Shown here piece by piece: positions 6,214 through 61,023 of a DNA stretch of 64,000 nt. How positions within the stretch are numbered: position 1 is the first letter of the stretch; each line of letters begins with the position of its first letter. The stretch covers positions 60,042 to 124,041 of the forward strand of contig JAGHTU010000004.1 in NCBI GenBank assembly GCA_018065185.1, written 5' to 3'. Below the pieces are notes generated by a model that was not told the origin of the DNA, did no database searches, and was given only the letters and a program-made list of their open reading frames with translations. Made by a program: the position numbers and the translations under genes. Source of the stretch: Candidatus Equicola faecalis. Its GTDB lineage: Bacteria > Bacteroidota > Bacteroidia > Bacteroidales > Bacteroidaceae.

Positions 6214-8043
6214 ATGGCATATTTGGCAAAATCAACTGTATTAAAAGCTTATCAATTACTCTCTAATATTGATACTGATAAACGTCAAGGACTTACTCAA
6301 AAGGTCAGTGCATTAAAATATGCATCTGCGTTAGACAGATACTATCTGTTTCACAATCAAAATTGCAATTTAAAACAATCGGTAAATAAAGATTTGTTTG
6401 CATCTTATGTCGGTGAAATCGTAAAAATCAATAACGAACAATGCACAAAAGATTTCTTTTTAGGTGTTTCGGCAAATGGTCGGGATTTTGATTGCGGTAG
6501 CAATTTCTTTTCACAGTCTTCGGTAAAAGATTCGAGAACAAATCCTTACGAAACTTTTTTGTATCCCAAACGATCAGGTTGGCAACCGGTAATGGATGTT
6601 AAGGATCAAGAGCTTATATTTCGTTCTGATTATCTACCTGATGTTTTCTCATTTTATTTGGGAACCTCTGAATTGAGATTGGCTTTTATAATTTGGCTTT
6701 TGCGTTTTACTGAAATTGGGGAAGAAAATTTGGATGGATTAAGATTATCATTAATTAATACCTTTTCAAATATTTTTTGTAATGCTCTTTATATAGATGC
6801 TGTAAACCATGTTGATACCTCTTATATCGAATTTGACAATGAAATGTGTCAGTTGAGCCAAGAAGATATTCTTTCTTTATTTAATTCAAGTAAAAAACAC
6901 TCATGTGAAAGCCCGTTATCAGCGAATATTCCTTTCCAGCAAATCTTCTACGGTGCTCCAGGCACAGGAAAGTCTCATGCCATCAATGAATTGACAGAGG
7001 GCGAAAGCGTGATTCGTACGACTTTCCATCCTGATAGTGATTATTCAACCTTTGTTGGTGCATATAAGCCAACAATGGGATTGTTGCCTATCTGTGATGA
7101 ATTGGGGCAGCCGATGAAGATTGGCAGCACAGTCCTTCATAAGGAGCAGATTATCTACGAGTTTGTTGACCAGGCTTTCTTGCAAGCATACGTACAAGCA
7201 TGGAAATACTATGCAGAGAATAGCGATGATGCAAAGAAACAGTATCTTGTGATTGAAGAAATTAACCGTGGCAACTGTGCACAGATATTCGGCGACCTCT
7301 TCCAGTTGCTTGACCGTAACGACTATGGTTTCTCTGTATATCCTATCAATGCTGATAAGGATATGAAGAAGCAATTGGAAAAGGCATTCAAGAAGGATGG
7401 CAAGACTATCACCATCGAAGGAGCTGACAAAATAAATGCTCTTTATAAGGGTAAAGATGTGGTGAGCCAAGTACTCTCTGGTGACATTCTTTTATTGCCT
7501 GACAACCTCTACATCTGGGCAACAATGAATACCAGTGACCAAAGCCTGTTCCCTATTGATTCCGCCTTCAAACGCAGATGGGAATGGCAGTATATGCCTA
7601 TTGACAAGGGCTACGATGCCAGCGGTCAGGAAATCAAGTGGGCGATTGAAGGCGCCACCAAAAAGTTTGATTGGTGGTCTTTCCTCGAAAAGATAAATGC
7701 CCAGATTGGTGAAGCTACCCAATCGGAGGATAAGAAACTGGGATTCTTCTTCTGCAAGGCTTCTGATGGTGTTATCTCTGCCGAGAAGTTTGTAGGAAAG
7801 GTTATCTTCTATCTCTGGAATGACGTATTCAAGAACAACGGTTTTGATGGTCCTATCTTCAAGGATGTTGATGGAACGGAATTGTCATTCTCAAAATTCT
7901 ACAAATCAGACTCTAAAGGTAATGCCATCGTACAGAAGGATAAGGTAGAGTTGTTCTTAACGAATCTTGAGGTAGAATCTTCAGAAAAAAGTGATAAGAT
8001 AGACCGAGAAGCAGAGATTTCTACAACGATAATAGAACAATGA
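6214..8043 (+). CDS. McrB/LlaJI.R1-like AAA+ NTPase restriction subunit with an unrecognised N-terminal domain
   Basis: Walker A GAPGTGKS, TFHPDSDYSTFVG, Walker B IEEINRGN, McrB signature ATMNTSD and DSAFKRRW. Confidence 0.9.
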   Translation: MAYLAKSTVLKAYQLLSNIDTDKRQGLTQKVSALKYASALDRYYLFHNQNCNLKQSVNKDLFASYVGEIVKINNEQCTKDFFLGVSANGRDFDCGSNFFSQSSVKDSRTNPYETFLYPKRSGWQPVMDVKDQELIFRSDYLPDVFSFYLGTSELRLAFIIWLLRFTEIGEENLDGLRLSLINTFSNIFCNALYIDAVNHVDTSYIEFDNEMCQLSQEDILSLFNSSKKHSCESPLSANIPFQQIFYGAPGTGKSHAINELTEGESVIRTTFHPDSDYSTFVGAYKPTMGLLPICDELGQPMKIGSTVLHKEQIIYEFVDQAFLQAYVQAWKYYAENSDDAKKQYLVIEEINRGNCAQIFGDLFQLLDRNDYGFSVYPINADKDMKKQLEKAFKKDGKTITIEGADKINALYKGKDVVSQVLSGDILLLPDNLYIWATMNTSDQSLFPIDSAFKRRWEWQYMPIDKGYDASGQEIKWAIEGATKKFDWWSFLEKINAQIGEATQSEDKKLGFFFCKASDGVISAEKFVGKVIFYLWNDVFKNNGFDGPIFKDVDGTELSFSKFYKSDSKGNAIVQKDKVELFLTNLEVESSEKSDKIDREAEISTTIIEQ

Positions 8044-21643: not shown

Positions 21644-22381
21644 ATGAAAATTATAATACGATTCTTTTATTGTCTCTATCAGATTTGTATCGCCTTACCA
21701 TTGATGCTGATTGCCACGATGCTGACCGCCATCACCACCATCATCGGTTGCTCGTTTGGGAGTGGCGACTTCTGGAGTTATTACCCACCGGCAGTCTGGT
21801 CGCGCCTGTGTTGCTGGGTATTCTTCCTTCCTGTCAAGGTGGAAGGTAGGGAGCATTTGAAGAAGGGGCAGTCGTACATCTTTGTTGCCAACCATCAGGG
21901 GGTGTTTGACATCTGGATGCTTTACGGCTTCCTTGGCAAGAACTTCAAATGGATGATGAAGAAAGAGTTGCGCAAGATTCCTCTTGTGGGGAAGGCGTGT
22001 GAGAAGGCAAATCATCTCTTTATTGAGCGTGGCAACACTGTTGAGACCACGAAAGCCCTTGAGCGTGCGCGTGAGATTTTGCGCAGTGGTATGTCTGTTT
22101 GCGTCTTTCCAGAGGGCACGAGGACAAAAACGGGCAATATAGGGCATTTCAAGCGCGGTGCTTATATCTTGGCAAAAGACATTCAATTGCCCGTTGTCCC
22201 CATCACCATCAATGGCTCATACGATGTGCTTCCCACGACAAGGGGCATTTCGTTTGTCAAGTGGCATCGTCTGAGCCTCACCATCCACGCCCCTATCCCT
22301 TACGATGAAGGGCAAGAGATGAAAGACCTGATGGACGAAAGCCGTAGCATCATTGAATCGGGGTTGTTGGAGAAAGAGTAA
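21644..22381 (+). CDS. plsC: 1-acyl-sn-glycerol-3-phosphate acyltransferase (PlsC family)
   Basis: ANHQGVFD and VFPEGTRT motifs. Confidence 0.85.
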   Translation: MKIIIRFFYCLYQICIALPLMLIATMLTAITTIIGCSFGSGDFWSYYPPAVWSRLCCWVFFLPVKVEGREHLKKGQSYIFVANHQGVFDIWMLYGFLGKNFKWMMKKELRKIPLVGKACEKANHLFIERGNTVETTKALERAREILRSGMSVCVFPEGTRTKTGNIGHFKRGAYILAKDIQLPVVPITINGSYDVLPTTRGISFVKWHRLSLTIHAPIPYDEGQEMKDLMDESRSIIESGLLEKE

Positions 22382-22405
22382 GAGATTTTTAGCATATGTA
22401 GATAC

Positions 22406-22657
22406 TTATTGACTATCGCGCATGACTTCTGCATAAAACCGATTTAACTGAAACAGCATTACATCCAAACTATATCGCAGATAGTTTTCTGCATCCCTGA
22501 TTTCTGTTGAAAGGTACATATTCCGTCTCATCGTTACTTCTGCTTCGCGCTCAACTTCATCGTATTTATACAACAGCTCGGTCGGATTTTCCCAATTCAG
22601 TTCGTTTACAATTCTTTTCATCAAACACATTTCATCAGGCTCATCCATTTGGCACAA
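22406..22657 (-). CDS. Small hypothetical protein or gene remnant at the distal end of the island
   Basis: 83-aa ORF 17 nt downstream of the PP2C gene on the same strand. No recognisable motif. Confidence 0.4.
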   Translation of the reverse strand: MCQMDEPDEMCLMKRIVNELNWENPTELLYKYDEVEREAEVTMRRNMYLSTEIRDAENYLRYSLDVMLFQLNRFYAEVMRDSQ

Positions 22658-22674
22658 ATAAACTACTATTGGCT

Positions 22675-23487
22675 TTACATGGAGAAATGCATAATAGCCA
22701 TAGAATAATCATCATTTGCTATAACCTTTTGGTTTAGAAGCTTTGTTATGTGTTTCCTAAAATTATAATCGTGAGATATACTATTAAATAAGGGATTAAC
22801 GACTTGACCAAAATTATCTATTTTTCGATTCAATGCACTCAAAATAAAATTCTCATTTTTAGTCCTTGATTCAATTGCAGTCTTCAATTCATTATCATAA
22901 AGACCTTTGTTTGCGATACAATACGATGACAATATATAATGTGCCAACGCATCGCTACATATAAAAACAACATCATCTGTGCCGATACTGAAAGTACCAC
23001 ATTTAAAGCCTTTAGGGTTCAGCTCATCTTTACTGTTTATTAAATATGGTGCAGAATTAAAATCAACCAGTGCTCCAAAACTATGTTCTAATAGTCCTAT
23101 TTTACGATTATAGTGGAATACAACACTATCCCCATACGCCATCCAATTAACATTCCCATTAACATACCAAGCACATGCGAGTGTAGCAAATGAACCCTCG
23201 TCATAGAACTTATCCAAGAACATGCCGCCTATCTTTTTTGCTTCATCTTCACATTCGAGATAGAAAGGTTCCCAAATAGTTTCAATCCATGAGTCTAATC
23301 GGTCAAATGAAGTAATTGGTGTTGACGGAAGGTTGTTTATCAGATACTCTGACCATCGTTCTGCAAATACGCCACCGCCTCCTGCACCGTCAGAAACCGC
23401 GATAAGATTCCCTTTTGCTATTACAGAATCTTCATTGACAGATGGTTCAAGAATCTTACCTATTGACGATACTTTGAGTTTATACAT
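22675..23487 (-). CDS. PP2C-like protein phosphatase (TerY-P triad type)
   Basis: Metal-binding motifs NEDS, AVSDGAGG, YGDS, ICSDAL and NDDYS. Overlaps the upstream gene by 8 nt. Confidence 0.85.
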   Translation of the reverse strand: MYKLKVSSIGKILEPSVNEDSVIAKGNLIAVSDGAGGGGVFAERWSEYLINNLPSTPITSFDRLDSWIETIWEPFYLECEDEAKKIGGMFLDKFYDEGSFATLACAWYVNGNVNWMAYGDSVVFHYNRKIGLLEHSFGALVDFNSAPYLINSKDELNPKGFKCGTFSIGTDDVVFICSDALAHYILSSYCIANKGLYDNELKTAIESRTKNENFILSALNRKIDNFGQVVNPLFNSISHDYNFRKHITKLLNQKVIANDDYSMAIMHFSM

Positions 23488-24931
23488 TTGCTTTTGAGAT
23501 GTTTGTCGGTGTACCGATATCCATTAATTGAATAAGAGTAGTCATATCTGCATTTACAGCCATTGCAGAATGTCGTTCTTTTCTATTATCATTGAGATAA
23601 GTTGAAATATCATCATTATATCTCAGTGGCAATAGACTTGACATATCAAATAGGATTTTACCATAAGAGTTTTCGCCCAGTTCGGCTTTAGAAATTGGGA
23701 ATGCGACTACGCCATCCCCATTTCCTGGCACAATATGAATATTGAACAGCAAGACATTACCATCATTCGTAAACATGGACTTTATCTCATTTGCCTTCTG
23801 TGTAACAGACTCCACTGTTGCACCATTGAAAATGCCGTCTGTTATGTTAATGATAGTAGGAGGGTAACAATCTTGGTTTTGATGCTTCATCATCCAATCA
23901 TCAAGCAATTCTCTTGCTTTATCTAGAGCTCTATGGACAAAGGTGCTTCTGCCATCACTTCTTGCCTCTACCCACTGAACTTTCTCTACCTCTTTTACAA
24001 CAACTCCTCTACGGGTTCTTTTTTCTTCACGAGTAATTATCTTTTTATATGGATGATCACGTAATTCTTCTGGAGTAACAAAGGATTTGCCTTCAAGCTC
24101 TCCCTGCCAACCGAAATAGGATTCTCTTCCATATCCGATAACAGCTATATCATAATAATTTCTAACCTCTATTGATTTTATACAGCGTAAAACCAGCTCA
24201 TTTATTGTTCTATTAACAATTCTTGCAGCAGCTTCAGCCAACGTCATTTCTTCACCAAACAAACTTGTTTTGTTTCGCATTGAAATAGATTGGTCTATCA
24301 AGAAGATGAACGCAGTTGGATTGCCTCGTGAGATTTGCGCAGTATAGGCTTCCTTGCCAAGTAACTGATTTGGGTTCGATGGAAGAGGAATACCAAAGTT
24401 CGATATATTAGTAATTGCTTCCAACGGAATAAAATTCTTTACGAGAACTTCTGCTTGGAAGTATTTTTGTTCATCTTCAGGCAAATCAAAATGTTTTCTC
24501 ACTTTTAAAGCGGAAAAATGTATATTGTCTAATGCCGACAGGGAACTACCGACCTGAGCGCCATCGCGAGTGGCATTACGATCTGCATATTTCGTATACT
24601 TCCATCCAACAACTGCTGGATCAATTTCCAAAATCACAGGATTTGATATTCTTCCATCCTTCATTGCAACGAACATCATTGGATGCTGTCGGGTAAAACT
24701 TACACGGACATAGTTCTGTAAGCCATCACGTAAATCTAACTGACGTGACAGCTCTCCACCTCCAGGTTTTCTGATAGTTATACCTTTTTCCTTGCAATCC
24801 ATCCATGAGTATAGACCTCCGTTCTTTATAATGGACTCCAGATTATCTCTATCCGTAAAGTGATATAATTTGTTTATACCATTTTTCTTTAGAATGTCTA
24901 AAAAATCTTGATAGTTTTGTTTTGTTGTCAT
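23480..24931 (-). CDS. Fusion of a DarT (DUF4433) DNA ADP-ribosyltransferase domain and a TerY-like vWA domain
   Basis: aa 1-180 has LYHFTDRDNLESIIKNGGLYS, YVRVSF...HPMMF and QAEVLV (catalytic Glu). aa 190-483 has YTAQISRGNPTAFIFLIDQSISM (MIDAS DxSxS), YYDIAVIGY, INITDG and LLFNIHI. Confidence 0.85.
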   Translation of the reverse strand: MTTKQNYQDFLDILKKNGINKLYHFTDRDNLESIIKNGGLYSWMDCKEKGITIRKPGGGELSRQLDLRDGLQNYVRVSFTRQHPMMFVAMKDGRISNPVILEIDPAVVGWKYTKYADRNATRDGAQVGSSLSALDNIHFSALKVRKHFDLPEDEQKYFQAEVLVKNFIPLEAITNISNFGIPLPSNPNQLLGKEAYTAQISRGNPTAFIFLIDQSISMRNKTSLFGEEMTLAEAAARIVNRTINELVLRCIKSIEVRNYYDIAVIGYGRESYFGWQGELEGKSFVTPEELRDHPYKKIITREEKRTRRGVVVKEVEKVQWVEARSDGRSTFVHRALDKARELLDDWMMKHQNQDCYPPTIINITDGIFNGATVESVTQKANEIKSMFTNDGNVLLFNIHIVPGNGDGVVAFPISKAELGENSYGKILFDMSSLLPLRYNDDISTYLNDNRKERHSAMAVNADMTTLIQLMDIGTPTNISKANV

Positions 24932-24934
24932 ATG

Positions 24935-25543
24935 TTAGTCATTAAATAATGTCAATTGTATGTTATCCGAAGACGTATTCTCATCTTTTTTGCTACTAAA
25001 GGGGTATATCCCTTCAACATACGCTTTTATAAGAAAAGCATGAGAAAGTGGTTTTGAAGGATCATCCACATCACAATTTGTTGCATAGTCAAGTAGTACG
25101 ATTGTCTTCATCTTACTCAATTCACGTAAACGTTCAATAATGTTGTGAACCTTATTTTCAAGTACCCATTTGTATGCAGGAAGATAGATCTGGTGTCTTG
25201 CTTCTATGTAACCAAGCAGTTCACTTCCATTTACCCCTTTCCTATGTCCCAGAGGCTTTCCGTATTTTCGTACAGTTCTTTTAAGACCTGCCATTGTTGT
25301 ATTTGTGAATAGCGATGTGTCAACATCACAAGTTTCAAATACCTTTAACCCTTGCCATATGGCTTCAACACAGGATGCCGTAACACCTTCAGAAAAAGGC
25401 ACTGGAATATTTCCATGAGGATAAAATGGACTAAGTTTCACAATTGTATCCTTTGCTTGACTCGTTACATCTGCAATTATGACATTTGGATATTTCTTTA
25501 AGATATTCTCAGGCTTCTTTCTATGTGATTCTATTATTATCAT
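24935..25543 (-). CDS. DUF6939-like protein, NADAR/YbiA-like putative ADP-ribosylhydrolase
   Basis: LSPFYPHGNIPVP and SCVEAIWQGLKVFE resemble the NADAR LSNFY and SVEHxxQAxKF motifs. Ends 3 nt before the DarT-vWA gene. Confidence 0.65.
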   Translation of the reverse strand: MIIIESHRKKPENILKKYPNVIIADVTSQAKDTIVKLSPFYPHGNIPVPFSEGVTASCVEAIWQGLKVFETCDVDTSLFTNTTMAGLKRTVRKYGKPLGHRKGVNGSELLGYIEARHQIYLPAYKWVLENKVHNIIERLRELSKMKTIVLLDYATNCDVDDPSKPLSHAFLIKAYVEGIYPFSSKKDENTSSDNIQLTLFND

Positions 25544-25745
25544 AAATAGTCCTCTCGAATAAATGGATTATAAAAAATAAAAAGATACTTTCATCACGCA
25601 TTTTAAAGACGACATCAAAATTACCATTGCTCATTATTGGATTACTTTCATAGTCAAGAATAGGGCATAAATGAGTGAGTGTAGCAAAATTGTTTTCTGC
25701 ATGCAAAATTGAGTCAATATATTCTAATATAAGTGAATAATTCAT
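25521..25745 (-). pseudogene. Truncated paralogue of the kinase N-terminus
   Basis: MNYSLILEYIDSILHAENNFATLTHLCPILDYESNPIMSNGNFDVVFKM aligns without gaps to the kinase's MKYPIISDYIDSIMSAEENFATLINLRPVLDNEGHPIMSSGNFAVVFKM, then similarity is lost. Confidence 0.85.
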
Positions 25746-25748
25746 ATA

Positions 25749-26411
25749 CTATTCATTAATATCTTTAGTCATTCTTGCTATTTCGTTTACTCCTTCCAAG
25801 AATCTGTAAATAAACAACATCGATGAACGCAAAGTCTCTATACTAATACTAGCAGAAAAAAGTTTCCCTTTGCTTTTACCTAATTGTCGATTTACAAGAT
25901 GACTGTAGCGAAAAGCAGTAGAATCCGGGTCATATTTTTCAAATTCAAGGATCAACTTTCGTATTTTCTTTGTTATGTTATCTGCTTGCATATAGGGGGT
26001 AAGCATTTCCCATAGACTTTCTAAACCATGTTTCTTCAAGTCGTCAATGTTCACGCCTGTTTTGAATAATAATATAGATTCCTTCATTATATTCTCCATG
26101 TAGATACGGAAACAATAAAGCGCAGGAAAAATATACGAATCCTTTATCAGATTGTTCTTGCAATATTTGCAAACGCCCAATAGGTTAATAGCAACGCTGG
26201 CATAACCAATAGAGAATTTTAAAGAATCCAATTCTCCATTGTTGATGATGCTATCAGACGAAAATGCTGAAGACTGAAACATAAAATCTGGAATATTATC
26301 CATTTTTAATGCATCAATATCTTCACAAGAAATATGAAGCACATCTTTTATGATGTCACTCCTTAACCTTTTCTTGTACCTCTTCAAAAAATGTTTTTTG
26401 TATTTATTCAT
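25749..26411 (-). CDS. Hypothetical protein with a HEPN-like helical pattern
   Basis: FPALYCFRIYMENIMK, KHGLESLW and DPDSTAFRY follow the ExxxK / HxLxxL / RY pattern of HEPN-fold proteins. Confidence 0.5.
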   Translation of the reverse strand: MNKYKKHFLKRYKKRLRSDIIKDVLHISCEDIDALKMDNIPDFMFQSSAFSSDSIINNGELDSLKFSIGYASVAINLLGVCKYCKNNLIKDSYIFPALYCFRIYMENIMKESILLFKTGVNIDDLKKHGLESLWEMLTPYMQADNITKKIRKLILEFEKYDPDSTAFRYSHLVNRQLGKSKGKLFSASISIETLRSSMLFIYRFLEGVNEIARMTKDINE

Positions 26412-26417
26412 TTTGCT

Positions 26418-28331
26418 TTATTCTTCGTGATAATCAAGTTTGTAGTATGATTGATACTTTCCTTTCTTTTTATACTCAATCACATTAATCATGGCTGGTG
26501 TTATTTTTCCGCCTTTTATGATTGAGGAGTGAGTAATCGCAAATGAGACATTTTCAGAAATAGTCTTGCATGAGATATGAAAGAACCTGTTCTCATCTTC
26601 TGTCTTTACTTTAATATCACCAATACTATTGATTTCGTCAATACATAATTTTCGCTCACTGAATATTACATATTCTTCTTCTCTTTCATCAAAGGTATCA
26701 ATCACCTCAAACGATCTGGAGTGTGAATTTTCCCTATTTTGTATATCATTCACCTTGTCTGAAAAATGTTTGGCTAAGAATATATTGCGAGCCTTACTTC
26801 TTCTATATAAATTAGCAAGCCACCAACATGCTTCTTTACTGTTGGTTGACGCTTTTGTGAACCAGAATATTGCTTTATTTAAGTCTTGTCGTTGTCCCAA
26901 TTTATGCAAAAGTCCATTTTCACCAAACACTCCATGGTCATACCAATGTCCCAAGATGCATTGAGCATCGGAGTTGTTCATATTGGCAGCTTTCGTAAAA
27001 AGTCTTAGAGCTTCATTTCCATCTCTTGGAACGCCCCTACCTTCATTGTAACATTGAGCTAACATTACAATTGGGATTGAGTCTTCTTTTTGTGCAAGGC
27101 ATTCTTTGAGCAATTGTACTCCTCTATTATAATCTTGTTTAAAAGGGTACCATGCTCTAATCAATTGAACAGCAAGATACAATTTGGCATCATAATAACC
27201 GCATTTAACAGCTTCTTCTAGGCACTTAACCTGAGTGTTATAATGTTTATTATGAAGATGATGCATCATATAGATGGCGAAATAGTTTTCTCCGACATCC
27301 ATGCCTTTTTTGATTCTATCATCACATAGTTTGATATATTCCTCATACTTATTCTCTTTTTTGTACTTTATGGCTTGTTTAATGATGCTATCGAAATGGT
27401 GCGTTGAATTGACATAAGTATTTGGGGCGGATATTTTCAATCTATTAAAGCTGTACTCTGACAAGCGTTTTCCTGAATAAACTTCCAAAAACAAACTAAC
27501 CAAAGTACATATCTGACTATCTGACAACATCTTGGAAACGATACGGAATGCGCCACTCTCTCCGAGATCTAAATAGTCTTTTTGTGCAAACAGCAATCGT
27601 TCTCCACCTGTAAAATCGTGGTACAAAGAAGGTGAATTAATAATGGCTTTCAATGATAACAGAATTGTACAAATAGAAAAATCATCTAAATGTTCATCAA
27701 ATTCGGTTGTTGTTCTATAAGGATGCTGATAATCAGGTGAACCTATTTCTTTAGCCTCTTGACCTTTCATTTCCGGAACATACATTCCGTCATAATCAAC
27801 CAACACTAGTTCTCCATTGTCAGTAACAAGAATGTTATCAGGTTTTAGATCTCCATGTGCAATAGGCGAAGAAATTAACCATTTTGATAATTGATAGAAA
27901 CGGAAAAACAAAGTGTTCAATTCTGCATTGTTATCAATGTTCTTTGCGATATATCTATCCAAAGTTAATCCATCCACCCAATCCATAACAAGCACAGGGT
28001 AGTCTGTCTCTAAACTTTGTTTAGTATTGACAAATAATTCATATTCGTAATAATGGACATTCAATAGATATGGTGACTTTAGCCAGTCTAACTGACGTGA
28101 AATCATACTATAAGACTCGCTTCTTGTTTGTTGGTCTTTTGTGAAGCATTTTACGGCATATTCCTTTCTGCTTTCTACATCTATCATTTTGAACACAACT
28201 GCGAAATTGCCACTACTCATTATTGGATGTCCCTCGTTGTCAAGGACAGGACGAAGGTTTATTAGTGTAGCAAAATTTTCCTCTGCTGACATTATAGAAT
28301 CAATATAATCAGAGATTATAGGATATTTCAT
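26418..28331 (-). CDS. Ser/Thr protein kinase with Sel1-like repeats and a small beta-rich C-terminal domain
   Basis: GNFAVVFK, YAVKCF, MDWVDG, HGDLKPDNIL and LVDYDG. Sel1 repeats include LAQCYNEGRGVPRDGNEALRLFTKAANMNNSDAQCILGHWY. Confidence 0.9.
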   Translation of the reverse strand: MKYPIISDYIDSIMSAEENFATLINLRPVLDNEGHPIMSSGNFAVVFKMIDVESRKEYAVKCFTKDQQTRSESYSMISRQLDWLKSPYLLNVHYYEYELFVNTKQSLETDYPVLVMDWVDGLTLDRYIAKNIDNNAELNTLFFRFYQLSKWLISSPIAHGDLKPDNILVTDNGELVLVDYDGMYVPEMKGQEAKEIGSPDYQHPYRTTTEFDEHLDDFSICTILLSLKAIINSPSLYHDFTGGERLLFAQKDYLDLGESGAFRIVSKMLSDSQICTLVSLFLEVYSGKRLSEYSFNRLKISAPNTYVNSTHHFDSIIKQAIKYKKENKYEEYIKLCDDRIKKGMDVGENYFAIYMMHHLHNKHYNTQVKCLEEAVKCGYYDAKLYLAVQLIRAWYPFKQDYNRGVQLLKECLAQKEDSIPIVMLAQCYNEGRGVPRDGNEALRLFTKAANMNNSDAQCILGHWYDHGVFGENGLLHKLGQRQDLNKAIFWFTKASTNSKEACWWLANLYRRSKARNIFLAKHFSDKVNDIQNRENSHSRSFEVIDTFDEREEEYVIFSERKLCIDEINSIGDIKVKTEDENRFFHISCKTISENVSFAITHSSIIKGGKITPAMINVIEYKKKGKYQSYYKLDYHEE

Positions 28332-28343
28332 AAGACGTTATTT

Positions 28344-28622
28344 TTAGAATGGTAAATCATCTGAAGTGTCATCACTATCATTCTTAAATGTATAACCCCA
28401 CGTATGAAGTTTTTTGATTATTTGAGCAAGCCTATTGACTTCATCTATTGACTGAGTTCTTGCATCAATTTTCTTTAAGTTCAGCGCATACTTGAATGTA
28501 CTATTTCCAATACTTGTCACAGAATTTGGAATAATTATTTCTCCAGATGCTATTGTATCGCAACGCATCAAGACCTTTTCTGTCTCATCAAACGTTAAAA
28601 ATTCACGATTATCCATGCTCAT
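28344..28622 (-). CDS. Short protein with one BspA-type LRR unit and an acidic DDLPF tail, possibly internally deleted
   Basis: IIIPNSVTSIGNSTF and C-terminus SDDTSDDLPF. The start is set at ATG 28622 because the promoter lies inside the longer ORF call. Confidence 0.6.
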   Translation of the reverse strand: MSMDNREFLTFDETEKVLMRCDTIASGEIIIPNSVTSIGNSTFKYALNLKKIDARTQSIDEVNRLAQIIKKLHTWGYTFKNDSDDTSDDLPF

Positions 28623-28655
28623 ATTGTTTTCTTTCTGTAATGGTGCTTCCTTTTG

Positions 28656-28663
28656 CAAATTTA
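28656..28663 (-). promoter_or_regulatory. -7 element for the kinase/DarT-vWA operon
   Basis: Minus-strand TAAATTTG(CA) matches TAnnTTTG, 34 nt before ATG 28622. Confidence 0.6.
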
Positions 28664-28809
28664 GTGCATAGCAAGAATAAAACAATAATAATTTTTATCA
28701 ATTATCACCTGTTATTTTCTAGGCTTATTATTTTCTTTTTCCCATCATCTATGATGAGACGCTTATCGGTGTGGAATGTGGGAAGATCACAGAGTAGGCT
28801 CTGTCCAAG

Positions 28810-29322: not shown

Positions 29323-29385
29323 CAATTGTCAATTATCAATTATCAATTGTCAATTATCAATTATCAATTGTCAATTATCAATTGT
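29323..29385. repeat. Heptamer tandem repeat (CAATTRT)9 overlapping the mfd 3' end
   Basis: Nine units of CAATTGT or CAATTAT counted directly. Confidence 0.95.
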
Positions 29386-32300
29386 CTAAGCACCTCGATG
29401 GCTTGGCTGACGGAAGCAACAGAGGAAATGGAGATGATGCGTTTTCCTTTGACTTCCTTTATCTGGCAGCGGCGCGGATTAGTGGCGATGAACTGCAACA
29501 AGGCATCGAAAGCCTGACTCTGATAGTATGGGCTGTCGTTGTTCGTTACCAACCCGAGATTCATCCGTCCCTGCTTCAGCATGATGCGCTCAATGCCCAG
29601 TCTTACTCCTCGCTGGCGGAGAAGCACCACCCTCATGAGGTCTTCGCCCACAGAAGGCACCTCGCCAAAGCGGTCGATGAGCCTTGCACGGAAACGCTCC
29701 ACCTCATCGGCAGACTTCAAGGAGTCAAGTTCACGATAGAGCATCATCCTCTCGCCCGAAGAAGGCACATAACTCTCAGGGAAATACATCTCAAGGTCGG
29801 TCTCGAGCGAACAGTCGGAGACAAACGTCATGGAGTTGTCCGTAGCGGCTTCGCCCTCTGCCACAGCCATCACATCGCTCTCCTCATTGCGTATCTCTGC
29901 CACAGCCTCGGAGAGAATCTTCTGGTAAGTCTCATATCCCAAATCGGCGATGAAACCGCTCTGCTCCGAGCCGAGCAGATTGCCTGCCCCACGGATGTCG
30001 AGGTCTTGCATGGCAAGATGAATGCCACTGCCAAGGTCGGAGAAATTCTCGATGGCTTCCAAGCGTCGCCGTGCATCGAGAGGCAACGCGCTCAGTGGCG
30101 GAGCCAAGAGATAACAGAACGCCTTGCGATTGCCACGCCCCACACGTCCGCGCATCTGGTGCAGGTCGGAAAGCCCAAAGTGTTGCGCATTGTTGATGAT
30201 GATGGTGTTTGCGTTTGGAATGTCTATGCCGTTCTCAACGATAGTGGTGGAAAGCAACACATCATAATCGTAATTGACAAAGCCCATGATGATGTTCTCC
30301 AGTTCCTCAGGCTTCATCTGCCCATGCCCGATGGCGATGCGACACTCTGGCAGACGTCTTTTCACCGTATTATACAAGTCGTCAAGAGAATTGATGCGGT
30401 TGCTCACAAAGAACACCTGCCCGTTTCTGTCCATCTCAAAACGTATAGCGTCGGCTATAAGGTCGGCATCAAACGTATGCACCTCAGTCTGTATCGGATA
30501 GCGGTTAGGCGGTGGGGTCTGTATGACGCTCATATCGCGCGCGCCCATCAGAGAGAACTGCAAGGTGCGCGGAATCGGCGTTGCACTCATCGTGATGGTA
30601 TCGACATTAGTCTTTATCTGGCGCAATTTCTCTTTTACAGCGACACCGAACTTCTGTTCCTCATCGATGATGAGCAAACCAAGGTCGTGGAAATGCACCG
30701 TCTTGCTTATCAGTTTATGAGTGCCGATGATGATGTCTATCTTCCCCTGTTGCAGGTCTTGCAGGAGTGCGGTGGTTTTCTTTGCAGAGCGCGCACGCGA
30801 GAGATAATCCACCCTGACGGGGAGGTCACGCAGTCGCTCGGAGAATGTCTTGTAATGCTGGAACGCCAAGACCGTGGTGGGCACGAGCACCGCCACCTGC
30901 TTCCCATCGCACGCCGCCTTGAATGCCGCACGCACCGCCACCTCCGTCTTGCCGAAGCCTACATCGCCACAGATAAGGCGGTCCATCGGTTGAGGACGCT
31001 CCATATCAGCCTTGACATCGTTTGTGGCTTTGAGCTGGTCAGGCGTGTCTTCATAGAGAAAACTTGCTTCCAGTTCGTGTTGCATGAAACAGTCGGAGGA
31101 AAAGGCAAACCCTTTGGCGCGACGTCTTGTGGCGTAAAGGCGTATCAGGTCGCGAGCAATGTCTTTTATCTTCTTCTTTGTACGCGCCTTGAGATTTTCC
31201 CACGCCCCAGTGCCCAATCGGCTCAACTTGACGTTCTCCGCCCCTTCCTTACCCTTATATTTAGAAACCTTGTGCAAGGAGTGGATGGAGACGTAAATGG
31301 TGTCGTTGTTCTGATAGCCGATTTTTATCATCTCCTGAAATCCGTCTCCCTGTGGCAGACGCACAAGGCCTTCGAAGCGACCGATGCCATGGTCAACATG
31401 CACGATGAAATCGCCCACTTCAAACTGTTGCAACTCTTTCAGCGTGAGAGCCACCTTACCGCTACGCACCTTCTCCGAGCGGAGGTTATACTTATGGAAA
31501 CGGTCGAAAATCTGATGATCCGTAAAGAAGCAGGCTTTTAAGTCGCCGTCCACGAACCCCTCATGTAGCGTCCGTTCAACGGGAGTGAAAGTGATGAAGC
31601 GCGACTGTTCTTCAAAAATATCCTTCAACCGCTGGTGTTGCTTACTGCTGTCGGCAAGGATAAAGATGCGGTAGGAACGGTTGATATAGTCCTCAAGCGT
31701 CTCTTTCAGCAGGTCGAAATTCTTATGAAACAGCGGTTGCGCCACAGTGTTGAAACGATACGCACCATCTCCGCCCTGAGACTTCGCTCGGATGTCAATA
31801 CGGCGCATCGATTTGGCACGCCTCTGGAAGTCTTCATCCTCCACGCTGTCGCATATAAAGCGAAAGTCACGAGTGACGAGGAGCGTATCATCGGGCATGA
31901 TGTCAATGATGGACGATGTCTCAAGAGCCTCCTCATCGCCCTCTGCCGAGGCATCAATGTTGCCGACAATCTCTATTGCCTCCAACTCCTGAAGGGAAAG
32001 TTGCGTCTGCACATCAAAAGTGCGGATGGAATCCACATCATCACCGAAGAAATCCACGCGGAACGGATATTCACTGCTGAAGGAGAACACATCGACGATG
32101 CCTCCACGCATGGCATACTGCCCGGGCTCATAGACGTAATCCACCTCCATAAACCCCATCTCGTCAAGCCTTGTTGCGATGGCAGTCATCTTCATCCTCT
32201 CGCCATGACGAACCGTCAGGATATTCTTCAAGAGCGAACCTTCCTTCCTCACCCTCTCGCTCACAGCATCGGGATAGGAGATGATGAACGTTGCAGCGTC

Positions 32301-32672
32301 TCTTTCATCATCATCATCATCGCGCGCCAGACGCGCCAGCACCTGCGTGCGCAATATCTCGCCACCAGCATCGCGCTGTGCCGATGCTCGGCTGTGGCGA
32401 CGGAATGGCGAGGCGAAGAACAGCACGTTCACATCGCCCTGCAACTGGCATAAATCATGATAGAAATAGCCGGCTTCCTCCTCATCGTTGAGGATGATGA
32501 AAAAAGTCTTTGCTCCGACATCGCAAGAAATGGAAGAAAGGGCGACAGGCAGAGACGATGCCTGCAGACCAAAAAGAGTGATGACCTTCTTCCTCCCCTG
32601 ACGTATCTCATCGGCGAGCAAGTCCACCATCGGCAAACGCCGATACATCCTGCGCAACATCTCTATCTCCAT
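29364..32672 (-). CDS. mfd: Transcription-repair coupling factor
   Basis: [55 protein letters not shown] and [12 protein letters not shown]. Confidence 0.97.
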
Positions 32673-32763
32673 GCGGTGCAAAAGTAATTATTTTTTCATC
32701 ATATATTGTCATTCGAGATAATTTAGTAACTTTGGCACATATTAACTATCATATCTAAAAAAG

Positions 32764-59349: not shown

Positions 59350-61023
59350 CTAAACATTTTTATAGTCTTCAAGGTCTTCAGCGCGGAAAGTCTTGATGAA
59401 AGCATAACAACGCTCCACCTCGCTCTGTGCCAGTCGCATGAAGACACGGCTTGTCTTTCCGAACAGTTCCGGTGCACGCGAAGCATCATCAGCAAGCATT
59501 TGGGCAAGCAGGATGTTACCTGTCATGTCATACAGACTGCGACCGAGGAAATCCAGCACCTCTTTTGAGTCGAATGTCTTTACCATCTCTACGGCATCGG
59601 CGTACTTTTCAATAATCGCGGTAAAATCGCCATTATCCATCTCTCGCATCATATCAAGGTAAGTACCATTGGTAATATACCTCAACGCAGCCACCACCTG
59701 CAACTGTGTCGTCCCCTCATAGATGGAGAAGATACGTGCATCACGATACAGTCGCTGACTCTTGTACTCCATGATGAAGCCCGAACCGCCATGTATCTGT
59801 ATCGCATCATACGCACATTGGTTGGCATATTCCGATGTCATGCCCTTTGCTATTGGTGTCAAAGCATCAGCAAGGCGTGAATACTTCTTCTGTTCCTGCC
59901 TCTCCTCCGTAGTGAGTTTCCGCTCGTGAGAGATGTCTTCAAGGTTCTTATATATATCGACGTAACGTGCCGTCATATAAAGGACAGAACGTCCTGCATC
60001 AAGTTTGGCTTTTATGCGCGTAAGCATGTCATAGACAGCAGGGAAATCCTTTATCACGGTGTCAAACTGCTTTCGCTCACCGGCATATTTCACCGCCTCG
60101 TTGTATGCCTCCTGACATACACCTACGCTTTGGGCTGCAATACCAAGACGCGCACCGTTCATCAGCGACATCACGTATTTGATGAGCCCCAACCGTGTGC
60201 TGCCACACAGTTCTGCCTTTGCATTCTTAAAGACCAACTCACACGTAGGTGAGCCATGTATGCCCAGTTTATGCTCAATATGGCGCACATTGACGCCACC
60301 CGTCCGCTTGTCGTAGATGAACATTGATAGTCCGCGCCCGTCACGCGTACCCTCTTCCGAACGTGCAAGCACGAGATGAACATCTGAGTCGCCATTGGTG
60401 ATGAAGCGTTTCACACCATTTAGACGCCAACACTGCTCATCATCGTCATAAGTAGCCTTCAACATGACGCGCTGTAGGTCACTGCCAGCATCCGGCTCGG
60501 TGAGGTCCATTGACATTGTTGCCCCTTGGCAGATGCGCGGAATGTATCGCTGTCGTTGATCTTCAGAGCCGAACTCATAGAGCGTGTCAATACACGACTG
60601 CAACGACCAGATATTTTGAAACCCAGCATCGGCAGCAGCCACAATCTCGCTCAACATGGAAAAGGCAACGATAGGGAAATTCATGCCACCATAACGCCGT
60701 GGCATACTCACGCCATTCAGCCCAGCCTTATTCATCGCTTCCAGATTCTCGAATGTCTTTGAGGCGTAAATCATACGACCGTCTTCCAGATGCGGACCTT
60801 CCTCGTCCACACTCTCGCTGTTCGGCGCGATGATGTTGGCTGCCACATCACCGGCAATCTCCATCACAAGGTCATAATTCTCCAAAGCCTCTTCCAAACT
60901 GGCAGGGGCTTCCTTATATTGGTCTTTATCTCTATAATCCACTTCTTTCAGTTCCACAATCCTCTTCATCAGCGGATGAGCGAGGTGGAATTTCAATTCA
61001 GGATGATCGCTATAATAATTCAT
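59350..61023 (-). CDS. Acyl-CoA dehydrogenase
   Basis: MDLTEPDAGSD, GVKRFITNG, KLGIHGSPT, IQIHGGSG and IYEGTTQLQ. Confidence 0.93.
   Translation of the reverse strand: MNYYSDHPELKFHLAHPLMKRIVELKEVDYRDKDQYKEAPASLEEALENYDLVMEIAGDVAANIIAPNSESVDEEGPHLEDGRMIYASKTFENLEAMNKAGLNGVSMPRRYGGMNFPIVAFSMLSEIVAAADAGFQNIWSLQSCIDTLYEFGSEDQRQRYIPRICQGATMSMDLTEPDAGSDLQRVMLKATYDDDEQCWRLNGVKRFITNGDSDVHLVLARSEEGTRDGRGLSMFIYDKRTGGVNVRHIEHKLGIHGSPTCELVFKNAKAELCGSTRLGLIKYVMSLMNGARLGIAAQSVGVCQEAYNEAVKYAGERKQFDTVIKDFPAVYDMLTRIKAKLDAGRSVLYMTARYVDIYKNLEDISHERKLTTEERQEQKKYSRLADALTPIAKGMTSEYANQCAYDAIQIHGGSGFIMEYKSQRLYRDARIFSIYEGTTQLQVVAALRYITNGTYLDMMREMDNGDFTAIIEKYADAVEMVKTFDSKEVLDFLGRSLYDMTGNILLAQMLADDASRAPELFGKTSRVFMRLAQSEVERCYAFIKTFRAEDLEDYKNV

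Follow-up and report, generated by a model that had tools for sequence, protein, structure and literature searches.

The window analysed here, a stretch of 64,000 nucleotides of contig JAGHTU010000004.1 of Candidatus Equicola faecalis (positions 60,042 to 124,041), carries a mobile cassette whose working core consists of four parts: a Ser/Thr kinase, a DUF6939 protein, a fusion of a DarT-type ADP-ribosyltransferase with a TerY vWA domain, and a PP2C phosphatase. The cassette thus combines a TerY-P triad, whose vWA is fused to a DarT1-like enzyme, with a gene of predicted NADAR fold. The reading we favour, with a probability of about 0.52, is that it acts as a phosphorylation-gated anti-phage system. 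The four core genes are as follows.

22675..23487, minus strand: PP2C phosphatase of the TerY-P family (PADLOC profile), overlapping the vWA stop codon and predicted to bind the vWA hairpin
23480..24931, minus strand: DarT-vWA fusion, a DarT1-type ADP-ribosyltransferase (aa 1-180) followed by a TerY vWA (aa ~193-478) with an intact metal-ion-dependent adhesion site (MIDAS) (profile matches)
24935..25543, minus strand: DUF6939, a NADAR-fold protein, predicted ADP-ribose eraser and antitoxin (fold and residues)
26418..28331, minus strand: likely sensor, a Ser/Thr kinase that belongs to the TerY-P (STK_OB) family and ends in Sel1 repeats (Pfam and PADLOC)

In a GTDB scan with the fusion, 171 relatives were found and the best 80 were kept, a set which thereby favours close relatives and is conditioned on two DarT motifs; the GTDB locus sets used in this work overlap and are related, and are not independent. 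The full fusion was present in all 80 loci, DUF6939 in 76, PP2C in 78 and a kinase in 59. The four loci without DUF6939 and the two without PP2C all run into a contig edge, and all four parts were found in 47 of the 48 loci having at least 4 kb upstream and at least 1 kb downstream, the sole exception being L002, with no kinase within 10 kb. PP2C or NADAR was missing from no locus with room. Conversely, when DUF6939 served as the anchor (the best 80 among 591 metagenome matches), 72 of the 80 loci had the fusion; among loci with enough room, it was recovered in 61 of 62, and a kinase in 37 of 39. When the vWA was used as query against 400 genomes of the window's family, with no DarT-motif condition, 24 genomes matched: 14 with intact fusions, one with a broken fusion, one with a close triad without DarT, one at a contig edge, three with distant triads without DarT, and four with weak matches, which were left out of the neighbourhood reading. 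The prevalence is therefore about 3.5% (14/400) of the sampled genomes, of the 16 judgeable close vWA loci 14 have an intact fusion, and NADAR and PP2C genes are adjacent to all 14 intact fusions. The architecture is conserved, and the neighbourhood survey bears out the co-occurrence of the genes that the preliminary description of this DNA joined in one system. Nearly all of the 80 loci come from Bacteroidales; the few contigs of metagenome-assembled genomes labelled otherwise may be binning errors.

The same description had recognised a triad of vWA, PP2C and kinase, and all three match the TerY-P profiles of PADLOC (3.6e-52, 5.1e-11 and 1.1e-55, respectively). The 483-aa fusion also matches the Pfam family DarT (PF14487) at 2.1e-34, and the best PDB match of its DarT domain is E. 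coli C7 DarT1 (8baq), both by sequence (3.3e-9) and by fold; the AlphaFold2 model of the whole fusion was mediocre (predicted local distance difference test, pLDDT, 68) and served for fold calls only. According to the passages available, DarT1 depends on M71, on N104, which binds guanine and is a His in DarT2, and on E152 (PMC11543638). These residues align to M86, N119 and E161 of the window's protein, of which N119 and E161 are kept in 80/80 loci and M86 was part of the search pattern for these loci. The loop equivalent to R52/D54 of DarT1 is shifted by one residue and variable, an Arg standing at +2/+3 after D66 in most loci and the D54 equivalent varying. Guanine in single-stranded DNA (ssDNA) is thus the predicted DarT substrate. 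The MIDAS residues D213, S215, S217, T330 and D365 are likewise present in 80/80. DarT is broken in both loci that lack NADAR: in G294, a 98% complete genome with no DUF6939, it has an internal stop and an altered HPMM motif, and in G1051 it lies in three pieces. In comparison with L001, a locus whose fusion is 96% identical to that of the window, synonymous divergence (dS) was 0.036 for DarT versus 0.35-0.93 for the neighbouring genes, and dN/dS was 0.055-0.13 for vWA, NADAR, PP2C and kinase, that of DarT not being judged since its dS is too small. The low dS of the DarT segment (window 24392-24931 versus L001 10001-10540) suggests a recent exchange of the DarT domain alone.

The NADAR-like gene of the preliminary description encodes a 202-aa DUF6939 protein (2.9e-78), and its likeness is upheld by the structure model (pLDDT 94), whose top three fold matches are all NADARs: 8bat (Z 9.9, root-mean-square deviation 4.4, 163 residues aligned), 2b3w (Z 7.8) and 8bau (Z 7.0), the next row scoring 5.6; the Foldseek E value was 1e-3. 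The spacing E60-x6-K67 repeats that of E88 and K95 in the DarT1 antitoxin, and E60, K67, K88 and D152 occur in 76/76 DUF6939 sequences, the equivalence to E88/K95/D171 being mapped by spacing and a weak alignment and not by superposition. The protein itself lies below the Pfam NADAR-DarT1 cut-off, and a sequence search against the PDB gave no match, a profile search reaching only E 0.45 to 8bat. Among 26 longer DUF6939 relatives scanned, two exceed that cut-off, and fusions to PARG, NADAR or NUDIX domains are seen in several. We predict from the model that DUF6939 is an ADP-ribose eraser and antitoxin, nearest to the DarT1 antitoxin, so that a family of 969 representative proteins (E<=0.001), unmentioned and without an assigned function in the literature searched, would gain a probable function.

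DUF6939 had no match in 50,697 GenBank phages. Ten viral contigs (L182-L191, around position 8000, or around 3100 in L187) carry DUF6939 without DarT; several of them are 95-200 kb long, L189 has a major head protein, some resemble giant viruses, and all six that were inspected have intact E/K/D motifs. By analogy with phage AdfN, a known counter-defence protein (PMC11825919, available passages), these viral orphans are candidates for counter-defence. Two further loci, again without DarT, have DUF6939 in a fusion with a canonical NADAR or in a cluster of NADAR, ADP-ribosylglycohydrolase-like and sirtuin-like genes (L093 8647-9876; L099 6721-10878).

The 270-aa PP2C had no Pfam match, and its profile found no match in the PDB. 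Its metal-binding Asp residues are conserved, D20, D33 and D179 being kept in 75/75 sequences and D259 and D260 in 74/75, and the catalytic residues of MIDAS, PP2C and kinase are all invariant or nearly so. In 49 loci the PP2C gene and the vWA stop share a 4-nt overlap. Prediction of the PP2C-fusion complex gave a score of 0.65 versus 0.18 for the best control, with runs sharing at least 62% of contacts and a partner pLDDT of at least 87; 116 of 157 solved pairs and 2 of 215 mismatched pairs attained that mark, counts that hold only roughly for our own alignments. In the predicted contact, the tip of a vWA hairpin (K304-R308) lies against PP2C residues 69-76, 87-96 and 153-155. At this interface T306 is conserved in 80/80 loci and PP2C W72, Y76, K93 and Y95 in 75/75, and the hairpin-tip Arg is kept in free vWAs accompanied by this type of PP2C and absent in three vWAs without PP2C. 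PP2C is thus predicted to bind the vWA part of the fusion.

The 637-aa kinase matches Pfam Pkinase and Sel1. Its PADLOC STK_OB match covers aa 1-270 and ends at position 268 of the 562 profile positions, and a C-terminal OB fold or zinc ribbon is absent, the tail consisting of Sel1 repeats. Across the loci, HGD-D161, N166 and D179 are present in 88/88 kinase domains. Where at least 9 kb of upstream sequence was available (40 loci), one locus had no kinase, 19 had one, 14 two, five three and one four. The kinase domains are about 62% identical, and 86 tails fall into 74 clusters; by simple motifs, 37 of these tails carry LRRs, 17 Sel1, four both, six WG repeats, three transmembrane (TM) segments, two a second kinase and 17 something else, and Pfam confirmed LRR_5, Sel1 and WG when run on 26 tails. 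Judged from these sequences, the kinases likely form a variable multi-sensor array with the tails as the probable sensors, which would make the tails a collection of candidate receptors for phage patterns in gut Bacteroidales. A trio of kinase, vWA and degenerate kinase with WG repeats, without PP2C, occurs at a conserved chromosomal position in three genomes of one genus (L202 7751-11353, L203 7057-10810, L204 7229-10856).

A phosphorylation-gated system of these parts could work as follows. At rest, PP2C docked on the vWA hairpin would keep the fusion dephosphorylated, while NADAR would remove leaky guanine-ADP-ribose marks. Upon infection, a phage protein or an envelope signal would bind the variable LRR, Sel1 or WG tail of one kinase, and the activated kinase would phosphorylate the vWA or PP2C, candidate sites being T306, an invariant residue of the docking tip, or the GT-P-T tail at the C terminus. 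DarT would then be released and outpace its eraser, and ADP-ribosylated ssDNA guanines would stall phage replication, until PP2C and NADAR reset both marks. In the passages available, TerY-P is reported to protect against Autographiviridae with most cells surviving (10.1101/2022.08.12.503731) and without general cell death (PMC7699616); DarTG1 defends by ADP-ribosylating phage DNA (PMC11825919) and has a NADAR as antitoxin (PMC11543638); and in the yegL/K/I cluster of E. coli, PphC dephosphorylates its partner kinase, which in turn phosphorylates PphC (10.1101/303594). By analogy with TerY-P protection, DarTG1 defence and the cross-activity of PphC and YegI, each step appears plausible. Since DarT is broken where NADAR has been lost, loci with room always retain PP2C and NADAR, and a kinase is lacking in L002, the kinase would be the activator and PP2C and NADAR the restraints; we infer this polarity solely from the pattern of losses.

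Several observations weigh against this reading, and most of them would be expected if two parallel arms shared one operon and polypeptide, with DarT controlled by NADAR alone, the triad having its own output, and the fusion merely serving co-localisation and co-expression. The DarT-DUF6939 pair precedes ZorA/ZorB-like genes, with neither kinase nor PP2C, in four loci (ZorB to 5e-15), whose Zorya-like operon consists of a coiled-coil-DarT fusion, DUF6939, a ZorA-like and a ZorB-like gene (L100 7531-11930; L181 6769-10953; L219 6826-11020; L222 6278-10400), and it occurs in other fusions, also without kinase or PP2C, in L091 and L094. Among 400 genomes of the order, seven have DUF6939: three in full systems, one in a PP2C-DarT variant, two with other DarT fusions and one in a DUF6939-NADAR fusion. 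As far as gene content tells, the DarT-NADAR pair is a portable effector module found also on a Zorya-like chassis and, since it exists without kinase and PP2C, it does not need phospho-control everywhere. In G863 a close triad (vWA 69% identical) has outlived the loss of DarT and NADAR, and more distant Bacteroidales triads never have DarT plus NADAR. The divergence of DarT tracks that of the other genes weakly (Mantel rho 0.17-0.30); rho is 0.50-0.56 among NADAR, PP2C and kinase and for vWA-PP2C. Because of this weak co-divergence and the low dS to L001, DarT appears to recombine as a module. Confident contacts in the complex involve only vWA residues (201-318) and no DarT residue, so that a direct block of the active site is not seen in the model. 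To these points are added the absence of T306 from two free vWAs of the same PP2C type and the lack of a detectable activity change in phosphorylated E. coli PphC (10.1101/303594, available passages).

Parallel action is a serious rival, even if we rate it as less likely. It does not account readily for a fusion that stays intact in all 80 selected loci and in nearly all judgeable close vWA loci of the family sample, nor for a PP2C that is never missing where room exists. Moreover, DarT has a second fusion in a TerY locus: in G202 (L095 1-4131) a PP2C-like domain is fused to DarT and followed by DUF6939, a free TerY vWA and PP2C. In a tree of 28 sequences the G202 DarT stood apart from the vWA-fused DarTs (approximately unbiased test, p 0.035, for a grouping chosen after seeing the tree), and this fusion is apparently a separate recruitment.

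It is improbable that DarT and NADAR form an addiction or growth-arrest module that retains a mobile signalling cassette, or a response to stress other than phage. The empty site described below, the decay of DarT upon NADAR loss and the first link of TerY-P triads to tellurite and metal stress (as cited in the available text of PMC10542128) would agree with it, but the hypervariable and duplicated LRR/Sel1 sensor tails fit an arms race, and large viral contigs, one of which encodes a major head protein, carry orphan DUF6939 genes with intact E/K/D motifs, which resembles the known AdfN counter-defence of phages. Least probable of all is another polarity or substrate, in which the kinase is the killing effector with ADP-ribosylation upstream or on protein or RNA, or in which dephosphorylation activates DarT: stand-alone TerY-P has, in the passages searched, no effector beyond the kinase triad, and the shifted R52/D54 loop would suit it, but DarT keeps the guanine-binding Asn, the Met and the catalytic Glu of DarT1, its DUF6939 partner is nearest to the DarT1 antitoxin, and kinase loss is seen in L002 while PP2C loss is not.

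Going one step further than phosphorylation gating, we tentatively consider the cassette, with rather less confidence, as an immune circuit resembling receptor kinases, in which kinases with exchangeable LRR/TPR sensors, in an array that can grow, would all act on a single vWA scaffold. Phosphorylation of this scaffold would set free an enzyme that writes ADP-ribose onto DNA, and one operon would link two reversible marks, phosphate on protein and ADP-ribose on DNA, both provided with an eraser. If true, this would name the output of the TerY-P switch and give DarT a defined trigger, and DUF6939 would be a new family of NADAR antitoxins that large viruses have borrowed as counter-defence. The literature passages searched do not explain how the TerY-P switch yields defence or what activates DarT on infection; since the natural fusion couples both questions, with ADP-ribosylated DNA as a direct read-out for kinase and phosphatase mutants, they become testable in one construct.

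The system is best described as TerY-P-plus-DarTG1-like, but it departs from each in one defining feature, from TerY-P in the kinase tail and from DarTG1 in the stand-alone pair. With TerY-P it shares the three PADLOC profiles, intact motifs and the coupling of vWA and PP2C, but its vWA carries DarT, a NADAR gene is added, and its kinases, mostly upstream and up to four per locus, have LRR, Sel1, WG, TM or second-kinase tails instead of an OB fold or zinc ribbon; YegL/PphC/YegI of E. coli is a cluster related to TerY-P. With DarTG1 it shares a DarT closest to that of E. coli C7, with the M71/N104/E152 equivalents, and a partner of predicted NADAR fold, which is nearest to the DarT1 antitoxin of G. 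lovleyi and carries E-x6-K as well as a C-terminal Asp; however, the toxin is fused to a vWA in a four-part operon instead of standing in a two-gene module, and the antitoxin comes from the separate family DUF6939 (19-21% identity to 8bat). In type II and III-A CoCoNuTs a TerY-P triad is likewise attached to an effector that attacks nucleic acids, with a predicted phospho-switch, and regulation of a separate effector by the triad has already been proposed for them (PMC10542128, available passages). There, the effector is McrBC, HEPN or helicase and separately encoded, whereas here an ADP-ribosyltransferase is fused to the vWA and has its own eraser. The combined architecture, which the preliminary description held to be uncharacterised, was not found in the literature searched; the original TerY-P papers (Anantharaman 2012, Gao 2020 and supplements) lie outside it and possibly list the architecture. 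The searched passages of PMC11125620 mention no kinase, vWA, DUF or Bacteroid.

The locus contains eight open reading frames (ORFs), all on the minus strand and spanning 22406-28685, in the order given by the preliminary description: LRR mini-gene, kinase, HEPN-like gene, kinase piece, DUF6939, fusion, PP2C and small ORF. Its account of a tightly packed, AT-rich run holds, the intergenic distances from LRR mini-gene to small ORF being 12, 6, 3, -23, 3, -8 and 17 nt and the GC content of the cassette 0.349 versus 0.448 for the genome and 0.48-0.51 for the flanks. The further features are listed here.

22370..28758, no strand: the whole variable cassette, without counterpart in a related strain (X7 contig)
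22406..22657, minus strand: 83-aa ORF of the insertion slot, outside the module (run contigs X1-X3)
25521..25745, minus strand: scar, 74-aa kinase piece, the 5' end of a kinase gene (952 aa in L001) minus ~2.66 kb
25749..26411, minus strand: accessory HEPN-like gene between kinase slots (ESM-Atlas neighbours; homologues in 3/80 loci)
28344..28619, minus strand: scar, LRR mini-gene, in which a different LRR-type start has been joined to the 3' end of a kinase-LRR gene whose L001 counterpart has 843 aa
28656..28663, minus strand: candidate Bacteroidota -7 promoter element TAAATTTG (pattern match; TTG ~19 nt upstream)

An eight-gene system, as first proposed, is ruled out by the comparison with L001, by the small ORF's lack of homologues in the 80 loci and by strain contigs that diverge at the slot: besides the four core parts, there are two scars, one accessory gene and one slot gene. 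L001 has three intact kinases (843, 637 and 952 aa). The LRR mini-gene is 69% identical to residues 780-843 of the first of them, and DNA homology to L001 stops at window position 28498; the window retains the last 64 codons of the first kinase and the first ~52 codons of the third, L001 segment 6692-9353 being gone at junction 25588/25578. Since L001 has full-length counterparts and the window only terminal codons, the LRR mini-gene and the kinase piece are deletion scars. The protein of the HEPN-like gene has HEPN neighbours in ESM-Atlas (score 0.94), but it had no match in Pfam, NCBIfam, PADLOC or PHROG, and the motif seen is R-x2-H (RYSH) only, versus Rx4-6H of HEPN RNases.

For the small ORF, neither a homologue in the 80 loci nor a family in Pfam, PADLOC, NCBIfam or PHROG was found. 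Contigs of runs X1-X3 (one study) carry it and diverge at 22663, so that in near-identical strains it is accompanied by different downstream sequence, and in one X7 contig only 77 letters separate 22369 from 28759, which makes an empty site. The locus is a variable cassette slot, a variability read from the bridging contig and from loose contig ends, while the lack of cassette read depth in X1-X3, X6 and X7 is given no weight. Low GC, patchy distribution and the empty site mark the cassette as mobile; none of the 16 matches on PLSDB plasmids was a full-length fusion. The exact empty site was not found in other species of the genus, in two of which plsC and mfd are co-directional with one gene between them. 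In the window, plsC (21644-22381) and mfd (29364-32681) are convergent, and the co-directional arrangement of L220 and L221 points to a rearrangement near the slot.

The element TAAATTTG agrees with the Bacteroidota -7 consensus and is the sole minus-strand match upstream of the gene run. This part of the single-promoter claim stands; the motif is common, with five further minus-strand matches within the run and 63 in the window versus 43.6 expected, and one promoter driving the whole run is a plausible candidate only. Between the cassette and mfd lie two copies (80% identical) of a 153-bp repeat dispersed in the genome (28812-28964 and 29133-29285) and a short tandem array (29326-29385).

Other genes recur around these loci. 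A protein of the A1S_2505 family/DUF1810 follows PP2C in 23/80 loci (e.g. L038 12312-13562) and also follows a Zorya-like DarT operon (L219 3821-5071), ADP-ribosylglycohydrolase and NrtR/NUDIX genes recur nearby, and AlbA_2/ATPase-like genes lie in or beside the operon in 14/80 loci (e.g. L001 12547-14088).

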